A DNA stretch of 63,704 nt, filler included, from a bacterium (GTDB lineage Bacteria; JALSQH01), in assembly GCA_026985515.1 (NCBI GenBank). It is 13 parts of 13 records of this genome, joined end to end, with 100 filler letters (N's around TTAATTAATTAA, not from the genome) between each part and the next. Parts side by side here need not be neighbours in the genome. Positions count along the whole stretch, not along the records: positions 40,494 to 43,019 come from JALSQH010000161.1; 12 more parts are not named here. One strand, given 5' to 3'. Position numbers and translations under genes: made by a program. This document shows, piece after piece, positions 22,758 through 41,030 of the stretch. The notes under the pieces were generated by a model, which was not told the origin of the DNA, did no database searches, and was given only the letters and a program-made list of their open reading frames with translations. The stretch's first letter is position 1; each line of letters opens with the position of its first letter.

Positions 22758-23184
22758 TTCTGCCCTTGTGTGCCTGAATTGTGGAAGAAGTCTGGCAGGA
22801 GTAAAGGAGGATGATTTTGTTATATCCCCGGATGAAGATACAAGTTATATTCTTGGCAAGAGGGAGGAACTGATAAAAATTTCAAAGAGATCAAAATTGC
22901 CCTTTTTTGTGGATTTTTTTATGCTGCTTTTAATTTGGCTTTTTGTTTTTGGCATTTTGCTATTTCTCTCTTTTACCACATTACTTGCAATGGTTATTGC
23001 AGGTGTTTTTACGACACTCTTTTTTCTATTTGTGGAGTTTGTTCTTCTGTTCTCGGGGGAAGGAACATTTGGAGAAATTCTCGTTAAAAAAGAAGTAGGT
23101 GACAGGAAAAAAATAATTCTTTTTCTTATGCTTACTGGTTTTATACCTCTATTTGTTGCCGCCGTTATTCTCTTTTTAAAGTAA
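22720..23184 (+). CDS. Zinc-ribbon membrane protein
   Basis: CPYC...CLNCG followed by about 3 TM helices. Confidence 0.7.
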   Translation: MKKCPYCGFNNPDSALVCLNCGRSLAGVKEDDFVISPDEDTSYILGKREELIKISKRSKLPFFVDFFMLLLIWLFVFGILLFLSFTTLLAMVIAGVFTTLFFLFVEFVLLFSGEGTFGEILVKKEVGDRKKIILFLMLTGFIPLFVAAVILFLK

Positions 23185-24108
23185 GTTTTTTAAACTCTCC
23201 CTCAGAATTTTCCATGAAGGACCGTTAAACCCTTCTATCAGGGCCATGGTTAAAAAGACCCCTGCACCTGCCAGGAACTGTGCAAGAATGGCATAAAGAA
23301 TAAGGATCCAGTACCTGCGCAAACTTTTTTTTCTTTTCTGGTAGTGGAGAAAGAAGAGAGCGTAAAAGAAAACTGCATAGAACCACGATACAAAATTTAT
23401 AATGGGTACCCCCATGAATTGTAGTTCATTTTTCAAAAGATGATTCCACTGCCAGAACTGAATATGGGGGGAACTTGCAACAGGATCAATGCTCATATCC
23501 CAGAAGAGAGCTATTAAAGAGATTGTAAAAGCACCACCAGTAAGAGTTTTAAAGGGGGCAAAATTGATTTTCCTTATTTTTTCAAACATGAAGTAGGATG
23601 TGTAAAAAACTGCGCTCCATCCAATCATAGTTACAAGGGGAGCTCTCAGTGGAGGAATATAAATGTGGAAATTTTTCTCGAAGAAGAAGTTTAAAATTAT
23701 GCCACTGTTTTCAAGGGAAAAACCATACAGAAGTGTAATGATGAAGAATTCGATTACACCTTCTTTTCCGTAGAATTTAAAAGCATGTATGAAAAGAAGA
23801 ATCCAGAAGATAAAGTTACTTATTTCGTAAATCCATTTTATTTCTGATATTGTGAGGGGAAGGGGAGGAACCAGTTTCTCTATTAATCCCCAGATGATCA
23901 GAGCAATCAGGATGTTTATCAGGGGATAATACTTGTCGTTTCTATCTTTACCCTCTTTCATAATATAGAGGACAAAAAATGCAAGGGGGAAGATGAAAAG
24001 GGCACTGGAATATTCGTTTTCCGGGATCCTTGTCTTTGCATAGAATTGGAAAAAATAGAATGAAATCACATAAAACCAAACGGGAAAATTTTTCCAGATG
24101 TTACCCAT
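23176..24108 (-). CDS. Carotenoid biosynthesis (CruF/DUF422-like) membrane protein with extra N-terminal TM helices
   Basis: ENSG, APLVTMIGW, WDMSIDP, FWQW, GVPIINFVSW motifs; AAGGAG RBS before ATG 24108. Confidence 0.65.
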   Translation of the reverse strand: MGNIWKNFPVWFYVISFYFFQFYAKTRIPENEYSSALFIFPLAFFVLYIMKEGKDRNDKYYPLINILIALIIWGLIEKLVPPLPLTISEIKWIYEISNFIFWILLFIHAFKFYGKEGVIEFFIITLLYGFSLENSGIILNFFFEKNFHIYIPPLRAPLVTMIGWSAVFYTSYFMFEKIRKINFAPFKTLTGGAFTISLIALFWDMSIDPVASSPHIQFWQWNHLLKNELQFMGVPIINFVSWFYAVFFYALFFLHYQKRKKSLRRYWILILYAILAQFLAGAGVFLTMALIEGFNGPSWKILRESLKNLL

Positions 24109-24250
24109 TGTTTGCTCCTTTTTGAAGGTTAATTTTAGCATAAACCGGGACAGAATTCAGGGAAACCTGAATTAAAATTCATGAAGGGGAGGAATACCCC
24201 CTTTCGGAAAGGTGACGAATTGACGTCCTGTGGGTTTGTTCATTTCCTAT

Positions 24251-24423
24251 CCCCCCTTCCGACCTTCTGTCCCTCCGTTAAGTGTGACTCCGTGGGGTAG
24301 TTTCACTTGAATAAACCGCTTTCACAGCCGACCCGATGGGAGGCTCCGCAAGAAGGATGTCTTCCTCTGCGGGCATTCCACGATTGCTCCGCCTTTACCC
24401 CATCGTGTCTGTCTCCGTCACAA
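24251..24423. repeat. Partial copy of the ~222-bp structured repeat, truncated by contig end
   Basis: 24271-24423 aligns to 40494-40646 with 12 substitutions in 153 nt. Confidence 0.95.
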
Positions 24424-24523
24424 NNNNNNNNNNNNNNNNNNNNNNNNNNNNNNNNNNNNNNNNNNNNTTAATTAATTAANNNNNNNNNNNNNNNNNNNNN
24501 NNNNNNNNNNNNNNNNNNNNNNN

Positions 24524-25819
24524 GATGAGTTTTGAGCCATCAATTCTTATCATTTTCACAACATTTCTGCCAGCAAATTTCTTTATGTTCGTATTGAGGA
24601 AATCCATCAGTTTTTCTTTCATCTTTTCATCTTTAATCGGGAAGTTGATTCTCTCTGTGTAAAATCTTCCAACTTTTTGAAAAAGGTCCTCAATTTGCTC
24701 TTTCAGGGTTTTGCCTCTCCTTGCAACCATTTCCGCCACCAAAAGATCAGCCAGAATCCCATCCTTTTCCGGGATATGTCCTTTAATGCTAAGACCGGCG
24801 CTTTCCTCACCGATGACAGCCACATTCCCCCTCAGGAGAATGTCACCAAGATATTTAAAACCCACTGGGGTTTCGTAAGCTTTCTGTTTGTGAAGTCTTG
24901 CAACTGCGTCCACAATGTGTGAAGTTGCGACTGATCTTGCCACGCCGCCTTTTATGTTTTTCTCTGTGTAAATATAGTCATATACAAGTGCAATAATAAA
25001 ATTTGGCTTTATGTACTCTCCACTCTTATCCAGTATTCCAAACCTGTCTGCGTCTCCATCGGTGGCAAGAGCAAGATCAAATTTCTCCTTTTTGAGAATC
25101 TTAACAGTTTCCCTGAGATTTTCCTCAGATGGATCAGGTGCCCTTCCATCAAAGAGTGGATCCAGGTTACTGTTTATGGTTTTAACTTCAATGTCAAACT
25201 CTTTTAAAAGTGCATCCAGATATTCCCTTCCCGTACCATGCATCGGGTTGTAGAGTATTTTGAGACCGGATTCTTTGATGATTTTGAAGTCGATTATATC
25301 GGCAATATGTTCAAAATACTGGGGTTTTGGGTCAAAAAACTCAACGATACCCGATTTTAAGAGGGAAGAAAGTTCCTGATATTTACATCTTTCCTTGTCA
25401 CTTTTTCTCAATTCCTCAATTCTTGCTTCAATCCATCTTGTTGTTTCTGGAAGTGCAGGCCCACCCCATTCAGGTGAGAATTTGAAACCTGCATATTTTG
25501 GAGGGTTATGGCTTGCAGTGATGTTTATTCCTCCTGCCCTTTTGTTTTTCACAATGTCGTATGCAATCACAGGGGTTGGTGTATCTCTGTTACAGAGGTA
25601 AACTTTTATTCCATTTGCTCCCATCACCGAGGCTACTTCTTTTGCAAAGTCTTCAGCCAGAAACCTTGTATCATATCCCACAATTACTCCCTGATCCTCA
25701 AGATGTTTATCTTTTATGTAGTTTGCCACAGCCTGTGCTACAAGGCGTACATTTTCAAAGGTGAAATTATCAGCAATTATGTCACGCCAGCCAGAAGTAC
25801 CAAATTTAATTTTTTTCAT
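24524..25819 (-). CDS. Phosphoglucomutase/phosphomannomutase, 3' truncated
   Basis: FGTSGWR, ITASHNP, DGDADR, GEESAG, EKDG. Confidence 0.92.
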
Positions 25820-25965
25820 TTTTCCTCTCCAGTTTTTTGATTAATTTTACGATATGAGGCGGGTAAAAGCAATTGAAGATGAAAAAGTTTCCCTCTTTGA
25901 TAACTATTGACAATTCCTGATTTTTCAATCATCATATAGTTGGTAAGTTTGTCTGGGAGGTTAAA

Positions 25966-27174
25966 ATGGGTCTTGCTTTACAAAATTTGATCTCTGTTAA
26001 TTCACGGGTTAATTTTTTATTCAGATTTATTGCCGTCAATTTCAACACGAGACCTTCTTTGAAAAAATGGCTCCGGACAGATTTTGGCTTTCTCAATTTC
26101 TCAGTATCAATCTACTCTGAAGATGGAAAGGTAAGGCAGAGTATTCTATTCAAAGACGGAAAGGTAAAGGTAACAGGGGAGGAGCTTGATAATCCTGATG
26201 TAAAATTCATTGCTATAGATGAGAATGCAGTGTGGGATATGATGATTCTTCCCCCAAATGAGACCCTGAATATGCTTTTAAAGGGGAGGTTAAGAATTGA
26301 GGGAAATCTCACCTATGCAACTCTTTTCAATTTCTTGATTTCACTGGTCCTCTTCAAAAAACAGATAAAGATGATGGAAAGGGAAAAGGAGAAACACAGG
26401 ATAAAAGAGAAGGTATCCCTTTCTGATGAGAGCAAAAATATTGAGAGGAACAGAAAGATAAAACACAGATTGAAGGGAAAGAGGGAGGATGGGGTTAAAT
26501 TTCTTGATGATCCTTTTCTTTCGGAGTATTCAATTGATGATTTCCCACGGTTGAAGAAGTTTCTTGATGTCCATTTCAACACAAAACCAGAAATTTGTCC
26601 GGAAAGGCCTCTGCTGTTAACTCAGTGGTATGTGGAAAATGGATTTGAAAGGGATAGGGATGGGAAGGAATGGGTGCCAGAATTGAGACAGGCCTATGCC
26701 TTCCGGTACCTTATGGAGAATAAAAAGCCCATTATTCATGAGGATTCACTCCTGGGAGGGAGCACCACGACGAAAAAAATCGGTGTGGTGATTTATCCAG
26801 ACGCTCATGGAACCCTGATCTGGGGAGAGCTGAAGACAATACCATACAGAGAGCTGAATCCTTACAATGTGGATGAGGAAACCGTAGAGATTCTCCACAA
26901 TAAAGTCTTTCCGTTCTGGATACACAGAAATTTTAGAGAGTGGGTGAGGGAAAAGTATAACTATCCTCTGTCTCAGAAGATTGATGAGAGGTTTGCAGCA
27001 TATTTTATGTGGAAAACTGTGGCTCTGTCCCATACAATTCCTGATTTCCCATCAGTTTTAAAAAAGGGAATGAGGGGGATCATAGAGGAAATTGAGGAAG
27101 AAATTTCGCATACAGAGGATGAATCAAAGATTAACACTTTGAAGGCGATGCAGATTGCCCTTGAGGGCGTGATT
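25966..27174 (+). CDS. Glycyl radical enzyme (PFL-like family) with N-terminal SCP2-like domain, 3' truncated
   Basis: N-terminus DGKVKV...PDVKF...MLLKGRLRIEGNL (SCP2-like); then PEICPERPLLLT, LRQAYAF, IIHEDSLLGG, SHTIPDFPSVLKKGMRGII (GRE barrel). Confidence 0.75.
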
Positions 27175-27274
27175 NNNNNNNNNNNNNNNNNNNNNNNNNN
27201 NNNNNNNNNNNNNNNNNNTTAATTAATTAANNNNNNNNNNNNNNNNNNNNNNNNNNNNNNNNNNNNNNNNNNNN

Positions 27275-27848
27275 AGGTGCATCCACAGGAGGACCACAGG
27301 CACTTCAGTATCTCATCCCTTCATTGCCCTTCGGTTACCCCTATCCAATTGTAATTATTCAGCACATACCGAGATACTTTTCCAGATCACTTGCAGAGAG
27401 ACTGAACTCATTTTCTAAATTGCATGTCGTTGAGACCTCTGATGGAATGGTACTTCTTAAGGGAAGAGTGTATGTTGCTCAGTCTGGTGTTCATCTTCTC
27501 TTTGGCAGGAAGGACTCCCGCTACTATATTATTCATTCACAGTATCCTGAGGATACTTTTCATAAACCCTCCATTGATGTGACCTTCAGAAGTGCAGTTA
27601 AGATCTTTGGAAAGAAGAGTGTCGGGATTCTTTTAACCGGCATGGGGAAAGATGGAGCTGAGGGATTGAGGGAGATAAGGGAGGCAGGAGGAATAACAGT
27701 GGCGGAATCTTCCGAAACTGCCATAATATATGGAATGCCAAAGGTTGCTGTTGAAATAGATGCTGCAGAGAAGGTTTTGCCTCTCTACGAAATAAAGGAG
27801 TTTTTACTCCATTTACCTGATGAGCACAAAAGAACTTCAGATCAGTGA
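27275..27848 (+). CDS. cheB: Chemotaxis methylesterase, 5' truncated
   Basis: GASTGGPQAL at contig start, IQHIP, HKPSIDV, LTGMGKDGA, YGMPK. Confidence 0.92.
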
Positions 27849-28470
27849 GATTTTTTACTCCATTCAGGGAGAGGGAAAATTCACAGGTTTTCCATCTCAC
27901 TTTGTGAGAGTAAGTGGATGTAATCTCAGGTGTGCCTATTGTGATACAAAATACAGCTGGAGCGGAGGAGAAGTTTATAGTTTTGAGAGGATTTTTAATA
28001 TGTTGAGTGGTTTTCCACCCACTCCCATAATTACCCTCACCGGAGGGGAACCCCTTCTACAGGAAAAATCCATTGAATTCCTCAAAGAATGCGGTGATAG
28101 GTACAGAATCGTGATACTTGAGACAAATGGTTCAATTTCAATAAAAGGGATACCGGAATTTGTTCACATTTCCCTTGATCTGAAACCACCCTCTTCAGGT
28201 TTCTCTCACATGATGGTGTGGGAAAACCTTGATTATCTGAAAGAAAGAGACGAAGTCAGGATCCTGATTGCCAGCAGAGAAGATTTTGACTGGGCGATGG
28301 AGATAAATGAAAGATACGAAATTGGAAAAAAATTCTTTTTTTCTCTCACCCCTGTTTATGGAATTTTATCTCCTCAGGTTCTTGCCCAATGGATTCTGGA
28401 AAGGGGTGGAAAGATTCGCATAAATCTTCAGTTACATAAGATTATCTGGGGAAATTCGAAAGGAAGGTAG
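27820..28470 (+). CDS. queE: 7-carboxy-7-deazaguanine synthase (radical SAM)
   Basis: EIFYSIQGEG, CNLRCAYCDT, TGGEPL, ETNG, QLHKIIW. Confidence 0.92.
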   Translation: MSTKELQISEIFYSIQGEGKFTGFPSHFVRVSGCNLRCAYCDTKYSWSGGEVYSFERIFNMLSGFPPTPIITLTGGEPLLQEKSIEFLKECGDRYRIVILETNGSISIKGIPEFVHISLDLKPPSSGFSHMMVWENLDYLKERDEVRILIASREDFDWAMEINERYEIGKKFFFSLTPVYGILSPQVLAQWILERGGKIRINLQLHKIIWGNSKGR

Positions 28471-28474
28471 AAAA

Positions 28475-29674
28475 TTGAGAGTAAAGATTGAGAAGGTGGT
28501 ATTTCCCGGTGTGGGACTTGTAAAAAGTAACGGTAAAGCTATTTTTGTTGAAGGTGGTGTTGTACCTGGAGACATCGTTAACGTCAGGACAGTCAAAGAA
28601 TCTCGAGATTATTTGAAAACTGCTGTTACAGGTTTTGTGAGGTTTTCAGAGCACCGTGAGAAGTATTTTTGCAGGTATGGAGGAAAATGCGGCGGATGTT
28701 TGTGGATGGGTGTGAATTACGATTTTCAACTTCAGATTAAAAAGAGTATGTTAAAGGATCTTTTTTTAAGAAACGCTGGAATTGAAATTGATGATATTGA
28801 TCTGGTACCGTCCACTCCCCCCTACCCTTACAGGTTAAGGGCAAGATTTAAAATTGAGAATGGAAAAATAGGCTTTTACAAAAGAAATTCCCATGAGCTT
28901 GTTGAGATAAAGAATTGTCCTGTCTGTCTGGATGGAATTAACAGGGGAATAGAATACCTTAGCGGGAAAATAAAACAGTACCGATCCCATTTCCCTTCAT
29001 TCCTGGAGGTGGAAATAAGGTACAGTCCCTTTGAAGATTCCATTCTTTTCAGACCTGCAGGCAAGATTTCGAAAAAGCTGAAAAACATTTTTCTTTATGA
29101 TATAAACAGAGAAAGAGAGTTTCAAAATTTTAAGTTTGGTGATAATACTTACCATCTCTCCATCAATACATTCACCCAGATAAATCCCTTCCAGAATGAA
29201 AAAGTTATTGCAAGAATCAAAGAATTTGTCATGCAAAAGAAGCTTTCAAAGGTTATTGATCTTTACGGCGGATTTGGTAATTTATCTCTCCCACTGGAAG
29301 AGTTTGTTGAGCAGATCACAGTTGTTGAGGAAAACTCATACGCTGTGGAGGATGGCAGATATTTTGTATCAGTTAATGGAATTGAAAGTAAGGTTAAATT
29401 CGTAAACGACAGAGTGGAAAATTTTATGAATGAACCGGAGAGAGGAGATCTTCTTATTCTCGATCCACCCCGAAAAGGTGCTAAGGAAGTTATGAATAAT
29501 ATTGAAAAGATATCTCCCCACTGGATTATCTACCTTTCCTGTAACCCGGCCACCCTCACAAGGGATGTAAAAATTGCCACTAAAAAAGGATATAAAATAT
29601 CCGATATAATTCTTTTTGATTTTTTCCCCTATACCCCTGAAATAGAAACGATGGTTTTTATGGAAAAGGGCTAA
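28475..29674 (+). CDS. rlmD: 23S rRNA m5U methyltransferase (RlmD/TrmA family)
   Basis: TRAM domain, C..CGGC..C cluster, FTQIN, LDPPRKG, YLSCNPATLTRD. Confidence 0.85.
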   Translation: MRVKIEKVVFPGVGLVKSNGKAIFVEGGVVPGDIVNVRTVKESRDYLKTAVTGFVRFSEHREKYFCRYGGKCGGCLWMGVNYDFQLQIKKSMLKDLFLRNAGIEIDDIDLVPSTPPYPYRLRARFKIENGKIGFYKRNSHELVEIKNCPVCLDGINRGIEYLSGKIKQYRSHFPSFLEVEIRYSPFEDSILFRPAGKISKKLKNIFLYDINREREFQNFKFGDNTYHLSINTFTQINPFQNEKVIARIKEFVMQKKLSKVIDLYGGFGNLSLPLEEFVEQITVVEENSYAVEDGRYFVSVNGIESKVKFVNDRVENFMNEPERGDLLILDPPRKGAKEVMNNIEKISPHWIIYLSCNPATLTRDVKIATKKGYKISDIILFDFFPYTPEIETMVFMEKG

Positions 29675-29862
29675 AGTCCTTCCAGGAAGTATTTAATCAT
29701 CATAGATTGTTGCTTAACATCAACAAGAAATGAATCATGACCGTGGTCAGATTGTATTTCACTGAAGGAAACTTCCACTCCAAGAGCCTGAAGCGTTCTT
29801 ACAATTTCTTTTGACTGGTATGTGGGAAAGAGCCAGTCACTGCTGAAGGATATAACAAGAGC
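29671..29862 (-). CDS. metX: Homoserine O-acetyltransferase, C-terminal fragment
   Basis: Not in ORF track. Reads ALVISFSSDWLFPTYQSKEIV...IQSDHGHDSFLV...EGL*, with catalytic Asp and His motifs. Confidence 0.85.
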   Translation of the reverse strand, partial: ALVISFSSDWLFPTYQSKEIVRTLQALGVEVSFSEIQSDHGHDSFLVDVKQQSMMIKYFLEGL

Positions 29863-29964
29863 NNNNNNNNNNNNNNNNNNNNNNNNNNNNNNNNNNNNNN
29901 NNNNNNTTAATTAATTAANNNNNNNNNNNNNNNNNNNNNNNNNNNNNNNNNNNNNNNNNNNNAA

Positions 29965-31071
29965 AAGGAAGTAACAGAAATAATCGCACAGGATGAGGAT
30001 ACAGAAGCAATTCTGGACCAGTTGAGGAGATACAAAAATGGAGAGATTTTGAGGATCGGGATCCATGATATTGGAGGTAAACTGAACATTTTTAAAGTAA
30101 CAGAACAACTCTCTGATCTGGCAGAAGTGATTGTTAAGACAATTCTGAAAATTGTTTATGAAGAATTAAAAGTAAAATATGGAACTCCTGTTGGAGGAAA
30201 TGGTGAAAAATCAAGGCTCTACACAATTGCCATGGGGAAATTGGGAGGAAGGGAGATAAACTACCACTCAGACCTTGACCTCATTTTTGTCTACACCCTC
30301 AACGGCGAGACAACCGGGCCAAAGAAAATATCAAACATAGAATTTTACACAAAAATGATCCAGAAATTCATAACTTATCTCAGTGTTCCCACAAAAGAAG
30401 GGAAACTGTATGAAATAGATATGCGACTTAGACCCAGTGGAAAAGCAGGCCCACTGGTTACCTCCTTTAACTCTTTCAGAGAGTATCATTCACGTGAATC
30501 TGCCATATGGGAAAAGCTTGCTCTCACCCGTGCAAGGGTTCTTGAAAAAGATAATTATGGAATGGAACTGGAGAGGATAATTCAAAAATCCCTTCTGAAG
30601 CAGAAAATTGGACAACCTGAAAGGGAAGAAATAGCACGCATAAGAAAAAGAATGGAAGATGAACTGGTGAAAAACAAATATGAGTTCAAATACTCTCCCG
30701 GTGGACTGGTGGACATTGAGTTTATAACCCAGTACCTGATGCTCGCATACTCAGGTAAACATCCTGATTTGCTGACCCAGAACACATGAGATGCAATTGT
30801 GAAAATTGAAAAACATGGTTTATTGCCATATGGAGATATCTCCATATTAAAAAAAGCCTACATTTTCTACCGAATACTGGAAAACAGGCTCAGGCTCACA
30901 AAGGACCACTCCTCAGATGCTCTGCCAGATTCAAGGGAGGAGATTGAAAAAATAGCAATGAAAATGGGATTTAAAGGAAAAAAAGCTGGACAAAAGATGC
31001 TGATCTTACTGGAAAAATTCACAAAAAATGTTCGAAAAATATATTCAAATCTCATATCAAAAATGGATTAA
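29965..31071 (+). pseudogene. glnE: Glutamine synthetase adenylyltransferase C-terminal part, 5' truncated, with in-frame TGA at 30787-30789
   Basis: MGKLGGREINYHSDLDL, IDMRLRPSG, WEKLALTRAR, GGLVDIEF. Both ORF pieces are in the same frame. Confidence 0.85.
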
Positions 31072-31145
31072 ATCCTGATGTATTGCAATTTTAAAGATTT
31101 TGTGCTAAATATAACTTCAAGGTTTTCCGGGGCAGGAGCAGGAAA

Positions 31146-32681
31146 TTGAGCAGGATTTTGATGAAGGGAGATTTTAAGCATGTCTCCCCCCTTGACCTTT
31201 TTCTTAAAATAAGCGAAGGGAAATTAACCGGGGCACTGAAAATCCAGAGAGATAATGTTAAGAAAGTTGTTTATTTTATTGAAGGTAAACCGGTATCTGT
31301 TCTGTCAAATCTCAAGAAGGAAACGCTTGGTCAGATACTCCTCAAACTTGGCAGAATTTCTCAGCAAGAACTTGATGAAGCATTAAAAGAACACGGAAAG
31401 AAAAACAGAAAACTTGGCTCGATTTTTGTTGAAAAAGGAATTATCTCAGCCTCTGATCTGAGAACGATTCTGAAGAAACAGAATACAATGAAATTGAGGG
31501 AAATATGTCAGTGGGATAGAGGAAAATTCATTTTTCAGGAGCTTCCACAGGATGAAATAAGAAAGCAGGTTACAGTTGTTCCCATCAGTTTATCTCAGGC
31601 TATTATCGCCTCACTTGTAAAAAATTCCTCATCTCAGACGGCAGAAGATCTTTTGCAGAAATTGAAAGATGGCTCACTGAAAATAAAAGGGGACGCCATC
31701 GACGTACTTGAACAGAAGGGAATTGCCACAGAAAGTGTAAAAAAAATAATTATGGAGATAACAGAATCACCTGAGAAAATAAGAAAGCTTTTTGATGAAT
31801 TTGATGAAAAGGTCATACTTGGCTGGATTCTCCTTCTTCAGAAACTTGATCTTCTCGAAGAAATTGAAAAAGCTTCAACTCCACAAACAGAAGAAACGGT
31901 TGATGAAAAGTATGAAAAATTTGGAGAAGAAATTATTGATGACCCGGAATTATACGAAAAGTATCAGGAATTGAAAAAGAAAAATTATTACGAAATTCTC
32001 GGAATTTCGCAGGATGCGTCAAAGGCCGAAATCAAAAGAGCCTACTTTAAACTTGCAAGAGAGATGCATCCAGATAGATTCTTTGATCCCGTAAAAAAAA
32101 GGCCCAAAAGGGAAGCTGAACTTATCTTTGCCCTGATAAATGAGGCTTTTCAAACTCTTTACGATGAAGAAAAAAGAAAAGAGTACGATGAATTTCTGCG
32201 AACAGGAAAGACTCAGGAAGACAGAATTAGAGAAGCAGAAAATGCCATAAAGGCAGAAACAGAATTTGAAAAAGGAAAAATTCTCCTAAGAAACAGAAAT
32301 ATTCAGGGTGCACTGGAGTGCTTCAAAACTGCTTACGAGCTGGTGAAGGACCCGGAATTTGAAGCCTACTACGGCTGGACTCTTTTCCTCGACCGATACA
32401 GAAAGAAAAGCGAAGAATGGAAGGAAGGAGAAAAATTGCTGAGGGACTCAGTGAAAGCAAAACCTGATCTACCCGTTTCTCATCTATTTCTCGCCAAAAT
32501 TCTCAATGCAACAGGAAGAATGAGAGAAGCTTTTGAAGAGTTTAACAGAGTTCTCCAGCTTGATCCAGAAAATATTGAGGCAAAAAGAGAATTGAGTATA
32601 CTCAAAAAGAAAGTGGAAAAGGAAGGTAAGTCCGGAAAAGATAAGGGAGGGATATTTGGAAAACTGTTCAAAAAGGAGTGA
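31146..32681 (+). CDS. DUF4388 (PatA-N-like) / DnaJ / TPR protein
   Basis: KLTGALKI..VYFIEG, LGQILL..GRI; J domain NYYEILGI...HPDRF; C-terminal TPRs. Confidence 0.8.
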   Translation: MSRILMKGDFKHVSPLDLFLKISEGKLTGALKIQRDNVKKVVYFIEGKPVSVLSNLKKETLGQILLKLGRISQQELDEALKEHGKKNRKLGSIFVEKGIISASDLRTILKKQNTMKLREICQWDRGKFIFQELPQDEIRKQVTVVPISLSQAIIASLVKNSSSQTAEDLLQKLKDGSLKIKGDAIDVLEQKGIATESVKKIIMEITESPEKIRKLFDEFDEKVILGWILLLQKLDLLEEIEKASTPQTEETVDEKYEKFGEEIIDDPELYEKYQELKKKNYYEILGISQDASKAEIKRAYFKLAREMHPDRFFDPVKKRPKREAELIFALINEAFQTLYDEEKRKEYDEFLRTGKTQEDRIREAENAIKAETEFEKGKILLRNRNIQGALECFKTAYELVKDPEFEAYYGWTLFLDRYRKKSEEWKEGEKLLRDSVKAKPDLPVSHLFLAKILNATGRMREAFEEFNRVLQLDPENIEAKRELSILKKKVEKEGKSGKDKGGIFGKLFKKE

Positions 32682-32684
32682 AAA

Positions 32685-33702
32685 ATGGCCCAGATCAAAG
32701 GAGAGAAAATCTGGATGGATGGAAAATTAGTGGACTGGGATAAAGCCAATGTTCATATTCTGACCCACACTCTCCATTACGGCCTCGGCGTTTTTGAAGG
32801 TATAAGGCTCTACAAAACAAATTCTGGAAAGCCTGCCATATTCAGAAACTATGATCACATGAAGCGTCTTCTCAATTCAGCCAAGATAATGCAGTTAGAT
32901 GTAAAATACTCCCTCGAAGAACTGATGGAAGCAAACAAAGAAGTGGTAAAAGCAAATCACCTTGAAGAGGGATACATCAGGCCAATCATATTCCTTGGAG
33001 CAGGAAGCATGGGTTTATATCCTGCAGATAACCCCGTCATTACAGCAATAGCAGCATGGGAATGGGGTGCTTACCTTGGAGAGGAGGGGATGAAGAAGGG
33101 AATAAGAGTANNNNNNNNNNNNNNNNNNNNNNNNNNNNNNNNNNNNNNNNNNNNTTAATTAATTAANNNNNNNNNNNNNNNNNNNNNNNNNNNNNNNNNN
33201 NNNNNNNNNNTCATCCTTTACCAGATATCCAGTAAATGTATTCATGACAAAATCCAAGACAAACGGTGCATATGTAAATTCAATACTTGCAAAAAGAGAG
33301 GCTGTGTCTCTCGGGTATGATGAAGCTTTGATGCTTGATCCCGATGGATTTGTAGCTGAGGCATCTGGTGAAAACATCTTTATCGTCAAAGATAATAAGC
33401 TTATTACAACCCCTCCAACTTCCATTCTCCCGGGGATAACAAGGGATACAGTAATAAAAATTGCCAGAGACCTGGGAATCGACGTCAAAGAAGAGAGATT
33501 TACAAGAGATGAACTTTACATTGCAGATGAGGCTTTTTTTACAGGAACAGCTGCAGAAATTACCCCCATCAGAGAGGTGGATGACAGAACAATTGGTGAG
33601 GGAAAACCCGGCCCCATCACCAGACAGCTCCAGCAGATTTTCTTTGACATAGTAAGAGGAAACAACAAAAAGTATATCCACTGGCTTGACTTCGTTGAGT
33701 AG
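32685..33702 (+). CDS. ilvE: Branched-chain amino acid aminotransferase, split by spacer 33111-33210
   Basis: [16 protein letters not shown]; after the gap [35 protein letters not shown]. Confidence 0.95.
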
Positions 33703-33760
33703 CCAGCTTGATAATTTCTGAAGAATCGTTATACTACCATTCTCAAACAAGGAGAATTTT

Positions 33761-34552
33761 ATGGGACTTGATGAAAGGGTTATAACAAGGGCAATTATTG
33801 AAAGGTACCTGAAAAAACTTCTCGAAAATGTTGAAACAGAGGTGGCTCTTGTGGGAGCGGGTCCATCTTCTCTCGTTGCTGCCTATTATCTTGCAAAGGC
33901 AGGGGTAAAAACCACTGTTTTTGAAAAAAAACTCAGCATTGGTGGTGGAATCTGGGGAGGAGGAATGCTTTTCAATGAAATAGTTGTTCAGGAAGCAGGT
34001 AAAAGTATTATAGACGAACTGGGAATAAGAAGTGAAAAATTCATGGAAAACTACTATACAGTGGATGCTATTGAGCTGGCAACAACTCTGGCATCGAAAG
34101 CAATGCAGGCAGGGGCAAAAATTTTCAACGCCATTATGGTGGAAGATGTTCAGGTGAGGAAGATAAATGGTCAATACAGGGTGACAGGACTGGTGATAAA
34201 CTGGACTCCTGTGGAAATTAGCGGTCTCCATGTGGATCCTCTTGTCATAACAAGTAAATTTGTCGTTGATGGTACGGGACATGATGCTGAAGTGGCGAGG
34301 ATTCTTCAGGATAAGATGGGATTTAAATTAAACACTCCCACAGGCAAAATTATGGGAGAAAAATCTATGTGGGCAGAGCCAGCAGAGGAGTCAGTTCCTG
34401 AAAACACAAAGGAAATCTTTCCCGGAGTCTATGCCATAGGAATGGCTGCCAATGCCGTCTTCGGCTCCCATAGAATGGGACCGGTATTTGGAGGCATGCT
34501 CCTCTCAGGTAAAAAAGTGGCAGAGCTGATTTTAAAAGAGCTGGGGAAATAA
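33761..34552 (+). CDS. thi4: Sulfide-dependent thiazole synthase (His-type Thi4)
   Basis: [41 protein letters not shown]. Confidence 0.93.
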
Positions 34553-34554
34553 AC

Positions 34555-35714
34555 TCAATTAAGCCTCTCAATAATAGTCGTGACTCCCTGGCCACCTCCA
34601 CAGCACATGGTGGCAAGTCCAAGGGTTAGATCCTTATCTTCCATTATATGCAGAAGAGTGGTGATGATCCTCGTTCCACTCTCACCAAGAGGATGACCCA
34701 GAGCTATCGCTCCGCCCCGCATATTCACCTTTTCCATATCCATTCCAAGCTCCCTGATAACTGCCAGTGACTGAGAAGCAAAAGCCTCATTCAGTTCTAT
34801 TGCATCAATATCATCAAGGGTCATTCCAGCTCTCTTCAGAGCCTTTCTGGTGGCAGGGATTGGTCCTATACCCATTATCTCAGGTGGCACACCGGCAGCC
34901 GCAATTGAAACAATTCTTGCTCTTGGTTTCAACCCAAGTGAAATTGCCTTTTCCTTCTCCATCAGGAGAATAACTGAAGCTCCATCATTGAGAGGGGAAG
35001 AATTTCCCGCAGTAACAGTACCGTTGGGGTCAAATACAGGTGGAAGAGATGCAAGTTTCTCAAGGGATGTATCGGGACGTGGCCCATCATCCTTTTCGGC
35101 TATTCTGTGAAAATTCCCTTCAGCATCAATAACTTCAATGGGAACAACTTCCCTTTTGAACTCACCATTGTCCCATGCTCTGACCGCCTTTCTGTGACTT
35201 TCCAGAGCAAATTTATCCTGATCTTCACGGCTTATGTTGTACATCTTTGCCACATTTATGGCTGTTTCAATCATAGTGACAAATGCCTGGGGATATTCAC
35301 TCCAGAACCTTGTATTTGGCCGCGGAGACAATCCACCCATTGGAATAAATGTCATACTTTCAACACCACCTACAATGTACGCATCCCCATTCCATTCCAT
35401 ATGGCAAGAGTGGCAAAATGAAGAGCAGTCATGGCTGAGCCACAGAATCTGTTAACCGTTACTCCTCCAACCTCAATGGGTAATCCAGCCATAAAAACAA
35501 GCATCCTTGCAATATTCATTCCCTGCTCCCCTTCGGGAAAGGCAGTTCCCCAGTACAGATCTTCAATCTCATTCCACGGGAACCCATCATATCTCTGCAT
35601 CATCTTTTTGATTAATTGAGCGGAAAGATCATCAGGTCTGATTTCCTTCAGACCACCCTTTCGGGCTTTTCCTATAGGAGTTCTCAAAGCCTCAACGATA
35701 ACTGCTTCTCTCAT
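34555..35714 (-). pseudogene. Acetyl-CoA C-acyltransferase (thiolase) with one frameshift near 35385-35388, probably a sequencing error
   Basis: NRFCGS, GGVESM, NEAFA, GHPLG, MCCGGGQG. Adding one G to a G4 run gives IWNGMGDAYIVGGVESM. Confidence 0.88.
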
Positions 35715-35755
35715 CTTACCCTCCCTGGTTAAGGTTTTATAGAGAAACTAAAATA

Positions 35756-37429
35756 TCACAGATCATCAAAATCCAGTTCATCAAGAAGCTTTTTCAACTC
35801 TTCATCTTCAAGTTCCTCATCGCCTTTTTTCTTTTTTCCCTTTTTCTCCTTCTTCTCCTCTTTTTCCTCTACCTTCTCCTCTCCCTCCTCAACAGTGATT
35901 TCTTTAAATAAAGCATCAACCTCTTCATCCTCATATTCTTTCAACCTATCCTCTCCTCCAGCTCCACTCTCCTCTTCAAACTCGCTGAGTATTGCATCAA
36001 GGTCCTCCTCACCCCCAGATTCCTCTGCTTCTACCTCAAGCTCAGCTTCTCCACCCTCTTCTTCACTCTCAACTTCTATTGCCTCTTCGATTTTCTCCCC
36101 CTCTTCAACACCTAACTCCTCAAGCAACGAATCCACATCCACTTCACCCTCCTCTCCACCCTTTTCTTCTTTTTGCTCACTCATTTCTTCCTCTACCGAT
36201 TCAACTTCAATTTCTCCCGATTCAGTTTCAGTCACTTCAATTTCTTCATCCTCCACCCTCAGCTGATCAAGGAGCTCCTCAATCTCTTCTTCCTCACCAC
36301 CTTCTTCCACTTCAACCTCCTCACCTTTACCTTCATCCTCAGTTGAAACCTCTATTTCCTCCCCTCCCTCTATTTCACCAAATTCTTCAAATGAAACTTC
36401 AGTTTCAATTTCCTCGCCAGTATCTCCGGAGGGGGTCTCTTCCTCTGACTCCTCTTCCACTATTTCCTCAGTAACTTCACCTACTTCCACATTTTCCGAT
36501 TCCTCCATAACCCCTTCCTCCCCTTCAAGTTCTTTCAAAAGTGTTTCAAGCTCCGCACTTGTACCTTCTGCTTCCTCCATTTCCTCCGAAACAGCTTCCA
36601 CTGAGATACCCTCTTCCTGGATCCCCTGTTCTGTAATTTCACTCGCTTCCCCACCTGATGTTGTCTCTTCAATCAGTTCTTCTGAGGATAATCCAGCGGC
36701 TTCTTCCTCCTTTACCTTTTCAGCAACACCGGAAAACTCCATATATGCTATCTCCACTTCTTTCTCTGTGACCTTCCTTAAAGAGGAAAGGTAAGCCTGG
36801 TAGAGTGAGGACCATGCGAGTCTATTAAGGAGATCTATGTCACCATTTGAAAATTCCACTATGGAATCGATGGCTTCTCCAGTAAATATTTCACTGCTCC
36901 CACCAGCGTAATTCAAATAACCCTGAATATACTTTTTCAATTCAGATGCAGGGGGTGGTTCAAGTTCCACCCCATTCTTTCCCTTTACTCTCTCCCTTGT
37001 AATAAGGAGTACAGAAGCTGAAGAAGCGGAAAGCTCTTGCTCAATGTCCCCTTTTTCACTGGCACCTTCAAATCCATCAATGATTACAATGTCAAAAAGA
37101 GAAGCAAGATTGGCCAGTGAACCTTCTGCACCTGCCACCTTATTCAGTCTCCTTACAATCCATTCAACTCCGGCATTGGTCGGGATAGTGATGTAAACAA
37201 CTTTCCTGGAATCAATTGGAATATATTCTATTGCTCTTTTTACCACACTTGTCTTTCCAGTTCCTTTTTTGCCAACCAGAAAAAGCAAACCTTTTTCACC
37301 GTTCAGAAATGAGAGAATTCTTGCCATTACCCTGCTTTGAGTAGAAAAAACATAGAAAAATCCCCCTGCCTCAACAGGAACAAACGGAGCAGTTTTAAAT
37401 CCAAAGAAATTGAGTATATTCATTTTCAA
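35756..37429 (-). CDS. ExeA/GspA-like AAA ATPase with long acidic C-terminal tail
   Basis: FFGFKTAPF, Walker A GKKGTGKT, IVIID; ~320-aa E-rich tail with DxLLxEL-type repeats. Confidence 0.7.
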   Translation of the reverse strand: MKMNILNFFGFKTAPFVPVEAGGFFYVFSTQSRVMARILSFLNGEKGLLFLVGKKGTGKTSVVKRAIEYIPIDSRKVVYITIPTNAGVEWIVRRLNKVAGAEGSLANLASLFDIVIIDGFEGASEKGDIEQELSASSASVLLITRERVKGKNGVELEPPPASELKKYIQGYLNYAGGSSEIFTGEAIDSIVEFSNGDIDLLNRLAWSSLYQAYLSSLRKVTEKEVEIAYMEFSGVAEKVKEEEAAGLSSEELIEETTSGGEASEITEQGIQEEGISVEAVSEEMEEAEGTSAELETLLKELEGEEGVMEESENVEVGEVTEEIVEEESEEETPSGDTGEEIETEVSFEEFGEIEGGEEIEVSTEDEGKGEEVEVEEGGEEEEIEELLDQLRVEDEEIEVTETESGEIEVESVEEEMSEQKEEKGGEEGEVDVDSLLEELGVEEGEKIEEAIEVESEEEGGEAELEVEAEESGGEEDLDAILSEFEEESGAGGEDRLKEYEDEEVDALFKEITVEEGEEKVEEKEEKKEKKGKKKKGDEELEDEELKKLLDELDFDDL

Positions 37430-37436
37430 GCCCCCT

Positions 37437-39719
37437 TTAAGATCTTGATTTTAAGATCTTTTCTTTAATTGCCTTGATCCTTTCTATGATGTCCCTGTAC
37501 TTCTTGTTTTTCTCAAGGACATTCTTGTAAAAGTAAACCGCCCTTTTCAGATCTCCCTTTGCTTCAAAAATTTTCCCGAGTTCATAGTTGAGTTCAAGAT
37601 AAGCTTCCTCACTCAGGTCGGGAGATTTAAGAGCTTTTAAAAACCACTTCATCGCCTCATCAAGATCTCCTTTGTCTCTGTAACAGAGTCCTATCATGGT
37701 TGCTGCCTCAACAAATCTCTCGGGATCCTTCGCAGCAATCCTGAATTCCTCAATGGCATCATCATACAACCCCATTTCTTTGTATGCTATGCCAAGATCA
37801 TAATGGGCAGAACTATCAGCATCCCCAAGTTCTTTCTTTACGCCCTCTTTGAAAGCCTTTATAGTATCTTCCAGGGAGGGAACATCAAAACCTGCACCAC
37901 CCTTCTCCTCCGGCAATTTCTCACCTATCAGCTCCCGAAGATCAATTTTTTCTTCTTCCCCTATTTCCCCGACTTCCTCCACATCTTCAATCACCTCCGC
38001 ATCTTCAATGACTTCTTCAGACGCAGTTGTACCAGGATTACCGGTACCGGTTACAACACTCGACTCAGACTGTGTAACAGTTTCCGCTTTATCAGTAACT
38101 GCCTTTTCTTCCATGTTTTTTTTCAACTTCTCATATTTTTCCCTTACCTCCTCAAGTTCGGGATGTTCTTTCAGGACCTTTTCATAGATATTTATTGCCT
38201 CTTCAAGAAGGCCCTGATCAGCAAAAAATTCCGCATCTGAAAGATCTTCGAGAACAGAAGAAGGAATTTTTTCTTCTCCAGCGGGACCACTTTTTACAAC
38301 CTCTTCATCAAGTCCAATCTCCGTTTCTCCAAGAATCTCTGAATCATCAGCAGGGATAACCATATCGAGAGACTCTTCTTCTTCTCCACCCCAGCTGTAC
38401 TGCTCCACTTTTTCCTGAGCAAGTTTATTTGATGGGTCAATCCGGAGTGCCTCCTCAGCATATTCTCTGGCACTTATCACATCTCCCAGACTATCAGATA
38501 TCTCTGCCAGGGCAATCAAATGTGGAACTGCTCCCTTTGGATTAACACGTTTATAAATTTCTATTAATTTTGCTCTGGCATCTATGTTATGAGGATCCAT
38601 CTTAATGGCTTCTTCAAGAGATTCAATTGCCTTATCAGCAAGTCCATTCTGAAGAAAAACATCAGCTCTCCTCATTAACCCTGATACCTGAGGCTGTGTC
38701 TGATCAAAATTCGTGGTGAAGAAGTGCTCGTTGCCTGAAGTTTCAACTTCGGCAACTATTGCCTCTTCCTCTTCTTCCTCACCAAGCATCTCTTCTTCAC
38801 CAACCAGAACTTCAAGCTCTTCCGCCTTCTCTTCTTTTATACCGAGAAAACTTTTTGCATCTTCATCATCGGGATTTAACTCGAGAATCCTTTCTGCTAT
38901 TACCCTTCCCTTTTCTCTGTCTTTTCTGAATTCGTTAAGAGCCTCTTTGAGAATATGAAGAGCCTTTTCTTTCTTACCAAGCATTTCATATGCTCTGGCG
39001 AGAAGGAGAAAGTGTTTATCTGTGAATTTACCTGCTTCATATATCTGCTTCAATTTGTTTATTGCTTTCCTGGGGTTACCAATCTGAATATAGATATCTG
39101 CCAGATCAGTTAAAATCTCCACATCTCCCGGTTTGTAATTCAGAAGCTTCTCATAGAAAGCAGCGAGATCCACAAGTTTGTGATGCAGCTTGAAGCCCTC
39201 AATCACGGAGGGGATCCTCACCTCAGCCTGATTAGTTTTTCCCGCAGCGAGGAGAGCCTCAACATACTTCGCCTTGATCGTGTAATCCTCGGGATCGAGT
39301 TTTACCATCTTTTCAAGAATGTCCACAGCTTTATCTAACCTTCCCTCAAGCTCATAGAGTTTCACCACATTTTTATAGTGCCTCAGAGCATCCTTAATGA
39401 GACCAGTATTGGCATAAAACTCGGCAAGCTTGTAGTGAAGATCTATCCTTTTGGGATCAAGTTCAAGTGCCTGTTTGTAGGCTGCAGCTGCTTTTGTCTC
39501 AAAACCTTTTTTTCTGTACTCATCTGCAGCTTTGATGTAGTATTTTATGGCCTCATCCTTTTTCCCGCTTTTCTGGTAGAGGTCACCAATTTTTGTGAGT
39601 ATTCGGACATCATTGGGATCGTCCTTTAAAATACCAAGATATTCCTGTATGGCTTTATCATACTGACCCTTTTGAATAAACTTCAGTGCCTTCTCAATGG
39701 CCTTAGCCTTATTCGCCAC
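37437..39719 (-). CDS. Large TPR protein, SgmX-like
   Basis: N-terminal TPR array, acidic linkers, C-terminal FKEGV...HYDLGIAYKEMGL.DAIEEF TPR block. Confidence 0.7.
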   Translation of the reverse strand: MANKAKAIEKALKFIQKGQYDKAIQEYLGILKDDPNDVRILTKIGDLYQKSGKKDEAIKYYIKAADEYRKKGFETKAAAAYKQALELDPKRIDLHYKLAEFYANTGLIKDALRHYKNVVKLYELEGRLDKAVDILEKMVKLDPEDYTIKAKYVEALLAAGKTNQAEVRIPSVIEGFKLHHKLVDLAAFYEKLLNYKPGDVEILTDLADIYIQIGNPRKAINKLKQIYEAGKFTDKHFLLLARAYEMLGKKEKALHILKEALNEFRKDREKGRVIAERILELNPDDEDAKSFLGIKEEKAEELEVLVGEEEMLGEEEEEEAIVAEVETSGNEHFFTTNFDQTQPQVSGLMRRADVFLQNGLADKAIESLEEAIKMDPHNIDARAKLIEIYKRVNPKGAVPHLIALAEISDSLGDVISAREYAEEALRIDPSNKLAQEKVEQYSWGGEEEESLDMVIPADDSEILGETEIGLDEEVVKSGPAGEEKIPSSVLEDLSDAEFFADQGLLEEAINIYEKVLKEHPELEEVREKYEKLKKNMEEKAVTDKAETVTQSESSVVTGTGNPGTTASEEVIEDAEVIEDVEEVGEIGEEEKIDLRELIGEKLPEEKGGAGFDVPSLEDTIKAFKEGVKKELGDADSSAHYDLGIAYKEMGLYDDAIEEFRIAAKDPERFVEAATMIGLCYRDKGDLDEAMKWFLKALKSPDLSEEAYLELNYELGKIFEAKGDLKRAVYFYKNVLEKNKKYRDIIERIKAIKEKILKSRS

Positions 39720-39733
39720 ACTATCCTCTCAAA

Positions 39734-40294
39734 TTAACCTATCCTCTCCACATATTCTCCTGTTCTTGTATCAATTTTAATAATGTCACCCTCATTGATA
39801 AAAAGTGGAACATTAACCACCAGCCCTGTCTCAAGTTTCGCTGGCTTGGAACCTCCAGATACAGTGTCACCCCTTACCCCAGGTTCAGTTTCAACAACTT
39901 TGAGTTCAACAAAATTGGGCAGTTCTATATCAATGGCATTTCCCCTGTAAAATAAGATTTTCACCTGTATGCCCTCCTGGAGATATCCAGCCTTTTCCCC
40001 AAGATTTGCAGCTGGAATGGAAAACTGATCGTATGTCTCAACATCCATGAACCAGTAACCTTCTCCATCAGAGTAGAGATACTGGGCCTCTCTCTCTTCA
40101 AGATCAGGTTTTGGAAACTTATCCCCCGATCTGAAGTTGATGTCAAGAACATTTCCGGTCAGAAGATTTTTCATCCGGGTTTTTACAAAGGCGGCACCTT
40201 TACCCGGTTTTACATGCTGAAAATCAATAATCTCGTACGGCTCACCCTTGTACTCAATTTTCAGTCCTCTTCTGAAATCTGTCGTGCTGTACAT
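39734..40294 (-). CDS. efp: Elongation factor P
   Basis: [37 protein letters not shown]. Confidence 0.97.
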
Positions 40295-40493
40295 TTAGAC
40301 ACCCCACCTCTTTTAGTTTTCAATACCACATTTTAATTTTAGCACAGGCACCTTTATTTATCAATTGTGGTTAATTTTCTGTAACCCGAAGAGNNNNNNN
40401 NNNNNNNNNNNNNNNNNNNNNNNNNNNNNNNNNNNNNTTAATTAATTAANNNNNNNNNNNNNNNNNNNNNNNNNNNNNNNNNNNNNNNNNNNN

Positions 40494-40958
40494 CCCTTCG
40501 TTAAGTGTGACTCCGTGGCAGTGCTTCATTTGAGTAAACCACTTTCACAGCCGACCCGATGGGAGGCTCCGCAAAAAGGATGTCTTCCTCTGCGGGTATT
40601 CCACGATTGCTCCGCCTTTATCCCATCGTGTCTGTCTCCGTCACAAACCACTCCGGGACAGAAGGTCTCCATCCGCCCAGAGGGTGTGTTCACTTTCCCC
40701 CTTTCCGACCTCTGTCCCTTCGTTAAGTGTGACTCCGTGGCAGTGCTTCATTTGAGTAAACCACTTTCACAGCCGACCCGATGGGAGGCTCCGCAAAAAG
40801 GATGTCTTCCTCTGCGGGTATTCCACGATTGCTCTGCCTTTATCCCATCGTGTCTGTCTCCGTCACAAACCACTCCGGGACAGAAGGTCTCCATCCGCCC
40901 AGAGGGTGTGTTCACTTTCCCCCTTTCCAACCTTCTGTCCCTCCGTTAAGTGTGACTC
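40494..40958. repeat. Tandem array of a 222/223-bp GC-rich structured repeat (2 full units plus start of a third; open at the contig start)
   Basis: Unit starts at 40494, 40716 and 40939. Units nearly identical; 122/222 = 55% GC; several internal inverted repeats. Confidence 0.97.
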
Positions 40959-40982
40959 TTGGTGTGGCAAGATGGAAAATAC

Positions 40983-40998
40983 TTGACATCCATGTCAA
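40983..40998 (+). promoter_or_regulatory. Palindromic operator TTGACAT-CC-ATGTCAA over a TTGACA -35 box
   Basis: Same palindrome and flanks (ACTTGACATCnATGTCAATT) as at 202-221. Confidence 0.65.
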
Positions 40999-41030
40999 TT
41001 CTGGTGTATGTTTTAGAAAAAAGGGAGGGT

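Follow-up and report, generated by a model that had tools for sequence, protein, structure and literature searches.

Positions 40494–40958 of the window (the whole 63,704-nt stretch of DNA that was analysed) are occupied by a head-to-tail tandem array of a 222-nt unit, followed by the promoter region of a short-chain dehydrogenase gene (Table 1). An earlier note on this DNA had proposed such an array, and it is borne out both by Tandem Repeats Finder (period 222, 2.1 copies, 98% matches, score 902) and by reading of the sequence. The unit is also GC-rich, as had been claimed, at 55.0% GC against 41.1% for the genome. That genome (G000) is a draft of 2.36 Mb in 268 contigs, with a completeness of 97.6%, and its phylum is represented by only two genomes in the reference set. 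The window itself is made of at least 13 contigs chained by runs of N around the word ttaattaattaa (e.g., 24424–24523 and 40394–40493), so that a feature spanning one of these runs is no evidence of adjacency. The 16S rRNA gene is absent from the assembly. The organism looks thermophilic, since its 44 tRNA genes average 64.7% GC against 41% for the genome and since sequencing run X1, which is possibly the source sample, is labelled a hydrothermal vent metagenome. Two runs from a second study, X2 and X3, contain the host species.

Table 1. Repeat features and adjoining promoter-like site, in window positions.
Feature	Position	Strand	Remarks
Degenerate first linker ("leader") of C155 array	24196–24260	+	Contig end
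Left arm plus 0.7 unit of C155 array	24261–24423	+	Cut by contig end
Unit 1	40494–40715	+	Tandem Repeats Finder; BLAST 100%, reference copy
Core within 6-bp stem TGTGAC/GTCACA	40506–40645	+	
Right 13-nt arm GGGACAGAAGGTC	40655–40667	+	
C-rich linker between units	40668–40706	+	With hairpin P3, among the two most variable parts
Left arm of unit 2, GACCTCTGTCCC	40707–40718	+	One T fewer than family consensus
Unit 2	40716–40938	+	98–99% identical to unit 1
Terminal partial unit	40939–40958	+	Array end near ...GTGTGACTC
Promoter-like site TTGACA-18-TATGTT of downstream short-chain dehydrogenase gene	40983–41012	+	Gene start at 41031

All of the complementary arms that had been listed for the unit were found in place on reading the sequence. 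TGTGAC (40506–40511) faces GTCACA (40640–40645), GTGG (40515) faces CCAC (40539–40542), GACCCGATGGGA (40553–40564) faces TCCCATCGTGTC (40621–40632), CCGCA (40569) faces TGCGG (40591–40595), and GGGACAGAAGGTC (40655–40667) faces GACCTCTGTCCC (40707–40718). With the phase of the unit fixed by the array ends, a unit runs from a left arm, GACCTTCTGTCCC, through the 6-bp stem to the right arm, GGGACAGAAGGTC, and then into a C-rich linker some 45 nt long. Enclosed by the 6-bp stem are a variable hairpin termed P3 (40515–40548), the 12-bp stem 40553–40564/40621–40632, and two apical hairpins (40569–40595 and 40596–40612). The right arm has two potential partners, namely the left arm of its own unit, in which case the pairing encloses the core, or the next left arm at 40707–40718, in which case it encloses the linker. 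Contig C161, to which the array belongs, starts inside the repeat, and the left arm of unit 1 is thereby cut.

A second, more diverged copy had been noticed near 24 kb of the window, on contig C155. This copy (24271–24423) is real, but it differs from unit 1 by 11 changes, including two indels, and not by 12; likewise, the differences do cluster in one hairpin, with seven of them (and not eight) falling within 40519–40541. Its nearest relative is the second unit of the array on contig C141 (96.7%). Both stretches stop at contig ends, as had been stated. The gene upstream of the 24-kb copy, a 321-aa ORF at 23176–24141 on the minus strand, had been called CruF-like, a label that finds no backing in any Pfam or NCBIfam match.

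The repeat is clearly not confined to a single locus, as had been supposed. BLAST of the genome reveals a family of 12 sites on 11 contigs with about 13 assembled units, the units at different sites being 88–95% alike. Unit matches occur on C13, C45, C68, C71, C141, C155, C161, C204, C205, and C243, and short solo remnants of roughly 55–80 nt lie at C205:4485–4535 and C222:17910–17979. Four arrays are contained fully within contigs (two units on C13, one on C45, about 1.5 on C71, and about 1.4 in the array C205a). C68, C141, and C155 break off within the upstream side of an array, and C161, C204, and C243 start within the downstream side of one. If these six contig ends were paired up, about nine loci would result. 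The join of 24423 to 40494, i.e., of C155 to C161, is only one option among three possible pairings, and nothing specifically links these two contigs. Units per locus vary from none (solo remnants) through one, 1.4–1.7, and two to more than two (unassembled).

Unitig depth suggests that the roughly 13 assembled units fall short of the true number, perhaps several-fold. Depth summed over the repeat was 49–338 in X1 against 7.75 for the flank, 0–81 in X2 against about 1–9, and 10–89 in X3 against 0–7, where a summed unitig depth is a rough hint only and is not a copy number. Of course, tandem copies could also arise by mis-assembly of a dispersed, single-copy repeat, and the near-identity (98–99%) of the window's two units at a contig start, together with the contact of six family sites with contig ends, would be in line with such an artefact. 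Against this, the two units of C13, 8% different from each other, are flanked left and right by unique DNA within a contig of 5460 nt; neighbouring units in C141, C71, and C205a differ by 5–13%; and overlapping X1 unitigs pass from one unit via the linker into the next, although X1 may be the source sample. (Record 9 of X2, with just 19 letters to the left of the unit border, was not counted as bridging.) Given the C13 units between their unique flanks and the unit-to-unit unitigs of X1, the tandem layout is taken to be genuine, and mis-assembly is scarcely credible as its source. The family nevertheless breaks the assembly at six contig ends, and resolving its arrays would improve the genome.

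Consistent with the non-coding character originally ascribed to the unit, no reading frame is open across all eight arrays tested. A protein-coding repeat was considered and rejected, as the window's 144-aa frame is broken in other arrays, where periods are 224–227. The unit had also been described as strongly self-complementary with multiple stems, and predicted folding agrees. For a 190-nt module, the predicted folding energy is −75.5 kcal/mol (plus strand) and −80.7 kcal/mol (minus strand), with z-scores of −5.46 and −5.24, respectively (about −5 on both strands); none of 200 shuffles was equally stable, and the module fold stays well below the shuffles at 75–85 °C. Each unit contains six plus-strand copies of the word CTCCG and none on the minus strand, against a genome mean of 0.11 per 222 nt, and six per unit was reached by none of 5000 shuffles. 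Four of the six words make up two symmetric 3 × 3 internal loops at the ends of helices (GGA/GGA when read on the minus strand); the remaining two flank the 6-bp stem at the junction. The spacing of the words (15, 57, 43, 26, and 16 nt) tracks the helix ends of the fold and not the helical repeat of DNA.

Whether selection acts on this folding, as had been proposed, is a separate matter, and the proposal was not borne out. Across 11 units, covariation was at the level of the shuffled control on both strands (minus, 0.051 against 0.049, with 166 of 500 shuffles as high; plus, 0.040 against 0.042, with 500 of 500 as high), in a test that is weak because the copies are 92% alike. RNAalifold placed two-sided changes at none of 46 pairs on the plus strand and at one of 55 on the minus strand. 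Over the whole unit, G.U evidence favours neither strand, much as had been held, and G.U and A.C changes fall on both. There are weaker signs of constraint on the fold, which come from the variability of stems and loops, the CTCCG words, hairpin P3, and a stem of one degenerate copy. Paired columns vary less than unpaired ones (15/108 versus 24/81, p 0.011), also with P3 removed (10/94 versus 14/57, p 0.037), in comparisons that are biased by the derivation of the structure from the same sequences. In the degenerate copy, C71b, one apical stem is kept via three two-sided changes while the other stems decay. The variable hairpin P3 is predicted to be stable solely on the minus strand, where z is at or below −1.6 in 13 of 14 copies, compared with 1 of 14 on the plus strand. 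Read by eye on the minus strand, P3 has a 4-nt loop (GCAA, UCAA, or UAAA) with a closing pair of C-G, U.G, or U-A, and a CU-to-GC change appears to re-register the helix without breaking it. Elsewhere on the minus strand, pair 55/113 is A-U six times, G.U four times, and G-C once; in four copies, the inner apical stem has A.C mismatches on this strand, which are G.U on the plus strand.

Beyond its fold, the family shows many of the irregularities of repeated DNA. Downstream ends are ragged at four sites, lying mid-unit on C71 and C205a and in the linker on C45 and C243, while the ending ...CCGTGGTAG is found at two other sites, C204 and C222. Copy C71b is strongly degenerate, at 75 bits compared with about 235. 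The C205a array begins exactly where a PF09820 ATPase gene, cut at this point, shares the 17-nt CCGTCCCYGCAGGTTTG with the linker, and this start is a microhomology recombination junction. First-unit bodies are 92% alike at five loci; before the first unit, identity at seven loci falls to 57% over the nearest 30 nt and to 39% over the next 55 nt. Tandem arrays that recombination keeps homogeneous are expected to decay at their edges in just this way. Unit type U1 (C68, C71a, C141a, and C205a; 92.6–95.1% alike) is followed by type U2 in C141, C71, and C205a, and the same order at different loci indicates that arrays were copied, or converted, as arrays. At C13 and at C205b, one of the solo sites, both array flanks are about 90% alike, while the downstream paralogous ORFs are merely 67% alike.

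Some of the DNA around these sites is itself repeated. The same array-end junction, together with a 220-nt promoter block, is present at C13:2454–2675 and C205:4485–4710 (90% alike), and this block looks to have been exchanged or recently copied; the paralogous ORFs that follow it have no Pfam or NCBIfam match. There are also eight matches in the genome to PF09820 AAA-ATPase-like paralogues (including C205:3371–3552, C13:4767–5460, C204:6535–7290, and C89:1–340), three of them on contigs with an array, and the paralogues share 77–96% identity in their 5′ parts and promoters.

All sites of the family lie outside intact genes, and their neighbours are housekeeping genes with no relation to one another. 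They include genes for a dehydrogenase, a radical SAM protein, RNase G, a NUDIX protein, arginine decarboxylase, and an oxidase, along with a CsgG/lectin protein, a ParE pair, a response regulator, a PBP, and unknowns. Divergent genes border about four of the sites, and genes of the same direction border four or five, in which case the array has the orientation of those genes; none lies in an interval between convergent genes. A rule that the downstream gene is always co-oriented was set aside, as it is uninformative at divergent sites and just four or five sites count. No promoter-like site was seen inside units. The promoter-like site of the dehydrogenase gene belongs to the neighbour and is outside the repeat, and since such sites follow the array at C161 and C13, the arrays there are upstream of those promoters. 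At 40983–41019, the promoter-like −35 box is part of an operator-like palindrome of 16 nt, TTGACATCCATGTCAA. In the window's linker variant, each of the two units has one terminator-like hit on the plus strand, a number within shuffle expectation. In the sister genome G001, considered as a source of orthologous empty sites, the 321-aa ORF has no match and the best match to the dehydrogenase is just 39% identical. A link with the replication strand was also discarded, for GC skew follows the coding strand (r 0.74) and the direction of replication is therefore not readable from it.

Searches for known classes agreed with the exclusions made in the earlier note. The whole window had no Rfam match at gathering score (Rfam 15, 4227 families), and the best E values for 40494–41000, at 0.18–6.4, were all far below gathering scores. 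ARAGORN found no tRNA or tmRNA gene in 40494–41000. A CRISPR array does not fit either, as the whole 222-nt period is kept at 88–99% and no part is unique to one unit. Several other candidates were tried and rejected. Self-cleaving ribozyme repeats were dismissed because no ribozyme family matched at E values of up to 10, and a CsrA sponge of the CsrB/RsmZ type because PF02599 had no match in the genome (the control was found in 3 of 14 genomes). An integron attC site, judged by eye against the generally known motif, was represented by just a GTTAAGT word with no inverse partner.

The search for mobilising partners was similarly unproductive. In the G000 draft, there were no matches to the Y1/RAYT transposase PF01797 (control found in 6 of 14 genomes), to TnpB PF07282 (control matches found), or to the reverse transcriptase PF00078, which led to the rejection of a retron, group II intron, or other RT-linked RNA, and no IS110 transposase was found. 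The sole transposase seen is an IS256-type (Transposase_mut) gene at C79:2637–3785 on the minus strand, and its ends are unrelated to the repeat. The element as a whole has no terminal inverted repeats, no target duplications were present at the flanks read, and the 13-nt arms are confined to the arrays, with no other loci carrying them.

Relatives outside G000 did not come to light. BLAST gave no match in 40 other genomes, and covariance model R1 gave none in 100 genomes (at most 25 candidates scored per genome) or in the only other genome of the phylum, which is 80% complete. No match was found in phages and plasmids or, by word scans, in viral contigs. Of 11 stretches returned by a 20-mer scan of metagenome contigs, nine belong to this assembly itself. 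The matches of the remaining two, like those of two hits in 185,579 species genomes, extend over 20–26 nt only, in exact-word scans of a kind that miss diverged relatives. The literature search found no report of such a repeat.

Among known systems, the closest likeness is to the REP, REPIN, and BIME-2 elements. According to PMC3333891, BIME-2 arrays are tandem arrangements of inverted palindromes with linkers, whose number varies per locus, and the present family likewise has tandem inverted arms with linkers in locus-variable number. Going by PMC3333891 and PMC3733652, the two groups are also alike in being extragenic and non-coding, in having imperfect palindromic arms that alternate and are joined by linkers, in their dispersal over the chromosome, and in their ability to fold as single strands. 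Still, the unit is longer than REP elements, as had been pointed out: it is 222 nt, with arms of about 33 nt and a conserved 125-nt three-hairpin core, whereas REPs are 20–40 nt in those same sources. There are about nine loci, versus hundreds for REPs. A conserved GTAG or CGTC tag, as at the REP palindrome foot, is absent, the usual internal form being GTGGCAG; GTGGTAG occurs only in C243 and at two array ends, and CGTC lies inside the 6-bp stem. A RAYT gene was not found in the G000 draft, and the sites are upstream of genes or between divergent ones, whereas REPs are mostly downstream of genes and between convergent ones. The family is thus not a member of the REP/BIME group, failing on unit size, tag, RAYT gene, and copy number.

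Other comparisons are looser. Like MITEs, the family consists of short, non-coding, dispersed repeats with inverted arms (13 nt) that fold into a long stem, but here the arms are inside a tandem unit and not at element ends, target duplications are lacking, and the search revealed no parent element that has these arms, the IS256-type gene having unrelated ends. In the mosaic intergenic arrays of Neisseria, short inverted repeats (dRS3) alternate with longer repeat blocks. The present arrays resemble these in the alternation of inverted repeats with longer blocks, but they differ in lineage, have no sequence likeness to them, and contain one conserved structured core instead of a block mosaic. 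ToxI-type repeats of type III toxin–antitoxin systems are tandem, about 34–45 nt long, and precede one toxin family. The shared features are a tandem structured repeat upstream of a gene and in the same direction; however, a unit here measures 222 nt and the genes that follow have no relation to one another (dehydrogenase, NUDIX, CsgG/lectin protein, PBP, and unknowns). Finally, the size, the GC enrichment, and the branched fold closed by a long helix recall the large structured RNAs of Rfam, although no family matches and tandem arrays with a fixed linker would be unusual for such RNAs.

With all of this in mind, the family is best viewed, tentatively and with slightly less than even confidence, as an orphan, BIME/REPIN-like family of non-coding, structured, interspersed tandem repeats. 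An array consists of a degenerate first linker, n units of 222–227 nt, and a terminal partial unit. Each unit comprises two imperfect inverted arms of about 33 nt, which form a 13-bp stem and a 6-bp stem whose loops are flanked by CTCCG, a three-hairpin core of about 125 nt between these arms, and a C-rich linker of about 45 nt. Because the arms alternate in orientation along the array, an arm may pair with either its left or its right partner. Whole arrays would be copied to new intergenic sites and would then grow and shrink via unequal recombination. Inner units would be held at about 92% likeness by exchange between copies, perhaps together with selection, while the edges decay. The hairpins would act in single-stranded nucleic acid, either as replicating DNA or as RNA read through from neighbours, and the likely effect would be on local transcripts or DNA structure rather than by way of a free-standing RNA.

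Several features of the sequence would point to such repeat DNA, though short of making the case probable: the dispersal, the ragged ends, the solo remnants, the decayed C71b, the fusion with a gene, the edge decay, and the order of the units. The lack of a favoured strand, covariation at the level of the control, and the want of promoter-like sites in the units tend in the same direction. What weighs against repeat DNA is that no mobilising enzyme was found in a draft of 97.6% completeness, albeit an assembly of a kind in which repeats commonly go missing, and that there are no terminal inverted repeats, target duplications, or longer element bearing the arms. Moreover, the core is a branched multi-hairpin fold and no simple palindrome, changes avoid paired columns (in the biased comparison), and the sites are unlike those of REPs, with none between convergent genes and with co-orientation at the same-direction sites. 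The P3 hairpin confined to the minus strand, the kept stem of C71b, and the placement of CTCCG at helix ends fit a selected RNA better than they fit junk. Such an RNA would be a new structured non-coding RNA made from minus-strand arrays, its precursor cut near the 13-bp helix into modules of about 190 nt, each of which would expose CGGAG loops, rich in purines, to a protein or a second RNA. This reading, the main rival, is less likely than not, and the BIME/REPIN-like reading, for all its tentativeness, is ranked above it; the two are not exclusive, since REP-type repeats also act as RNA once transcribed (PMC3733652, PMC3333891). The RNA would explain a branched fold with a 13-bp closing helix and a z-score of about −5 that exceeds shuffles at 75–85 °C, as well as 55% GC in a 41% genome whose 44 tRNAs average 64.7%. 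It also draws on minus-strand detail: P3 with its loops, closing pairs, and re-registered helix (13/14 copies against 1/14), the A-U, G.U, and G-C states of pair 55/113 (6, 4, and 1), 55 pairs against 46 on the plus strand, and the two symmetric GGA/GGA loops at helix ends. Stems that vary less than loops and the three two-sided changes in C71b add to this. Yet covariation is no higher than in controls, the inner apical stem has A.C mismatches on the minus strand in four copies (G.U pairs when read on the plus strand), and reading by eye at four sites revealed no promoter-like site past the downstream (plus-strand) array end. Truncated copies, solos, and a gene fusion would be odd for a needed RNA, and no homologue was found outside G000 in genomes, the phylum relative, or word scans. 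In its fullest form, the RNA would be a new, large, tandem-modular class in a thermophilic orphan phylum, transcribed from the minus strand, processed at the 13-bp helix, and binding a partner through paired CGGAG loops, with arrays serving as multi-copy genes kept alike by selection; this version is more doubtful still.

Two further explanations carry much less weight. It is improbable that the arrays are a cis-acting element of their neighbours, such as an insulator, a protein-binding platform upstream of promoters, or a stabiliser of transcript ends. Every site does lie in intergenic DNA that has the promoter side of a gene, with none between convergent genes, arrays are directly upstream of promoter-like sites at C161 and C13, and each unit has six CTCCG words on the same strand; the neighbouring genes are nonetheless unrelated, copy number and truncation vary from site to site, and the CTCCG spacing follows the helix ends of the fold and not the DNA helical repeat. 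Just as hard to credit, or slightly harder, is an origin as the remains of an HUH-type single-strand transposon or its guide RNA (e.g., IS200/IS605 ends, REPIN-like doublets, or a TnpB-type RNA scaffold) whose enzyme gene was lost or is unassembled. Hairpin-rich ends that lack terminal inverted repeats or target duplications, a roughly constant upstream boundary, the ending ...CCGTGGTAG common to two sites, and co-orientation with genes at the four or five same-direction sites would suit such an element. However, PF01797 and PF07282 were not found in the genome while the controls were positive, the flanking ORFs are unrelated, and no conserved GTAG adjoins a hairpin foot inside the units. The flank at the upstream boundary is partly conserved and offers no variable guide, and the unit far exceeds the 20–40 nt given for REPs in PMC3733652 and PMC3333891.

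The host phylum is barely sampled, with two reference genomes, and its non-coding content is unexplored. If the family is selfish DNA, it would combine a REP/BIME-like way of life with a branched unit some tenfold larger and no known transposase, and the manner in which such arrays spread would call for an explanation. Were it RNA instead, a thermophile would possess a new, large, structured RNA whose genes are arranged in tandem, an unusual layout.

Other repeats also occur in this genome. The IS256-type gene on C79 adjoins a segment that is repeated at five or six contig ends (C45:1–444; the ends of C50, C132, and C216; and C168:6467–6909), and one copy of this segment lies about 45–60 nt past the truncated end of the C45 array. 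A second repeat family is built on a perfect 121-nt inverted repeat (C46:1–121 and 4534–4654) around a 1373-aa DUF7948/SBBP/PKD gene, and a shared stretch of 110–200 nt recurs at the ends of C233, C37, C220, C178, C168, and C191 with 81–100% identity. Lastly, a GC-rich hairpin word, GGAGCGGGCC, followed by TGTATT, is found before the C205b solo (C205:4420–4460) and after the C222 solo (C222:17980–18010) and may be a shared terminator-like repeat.
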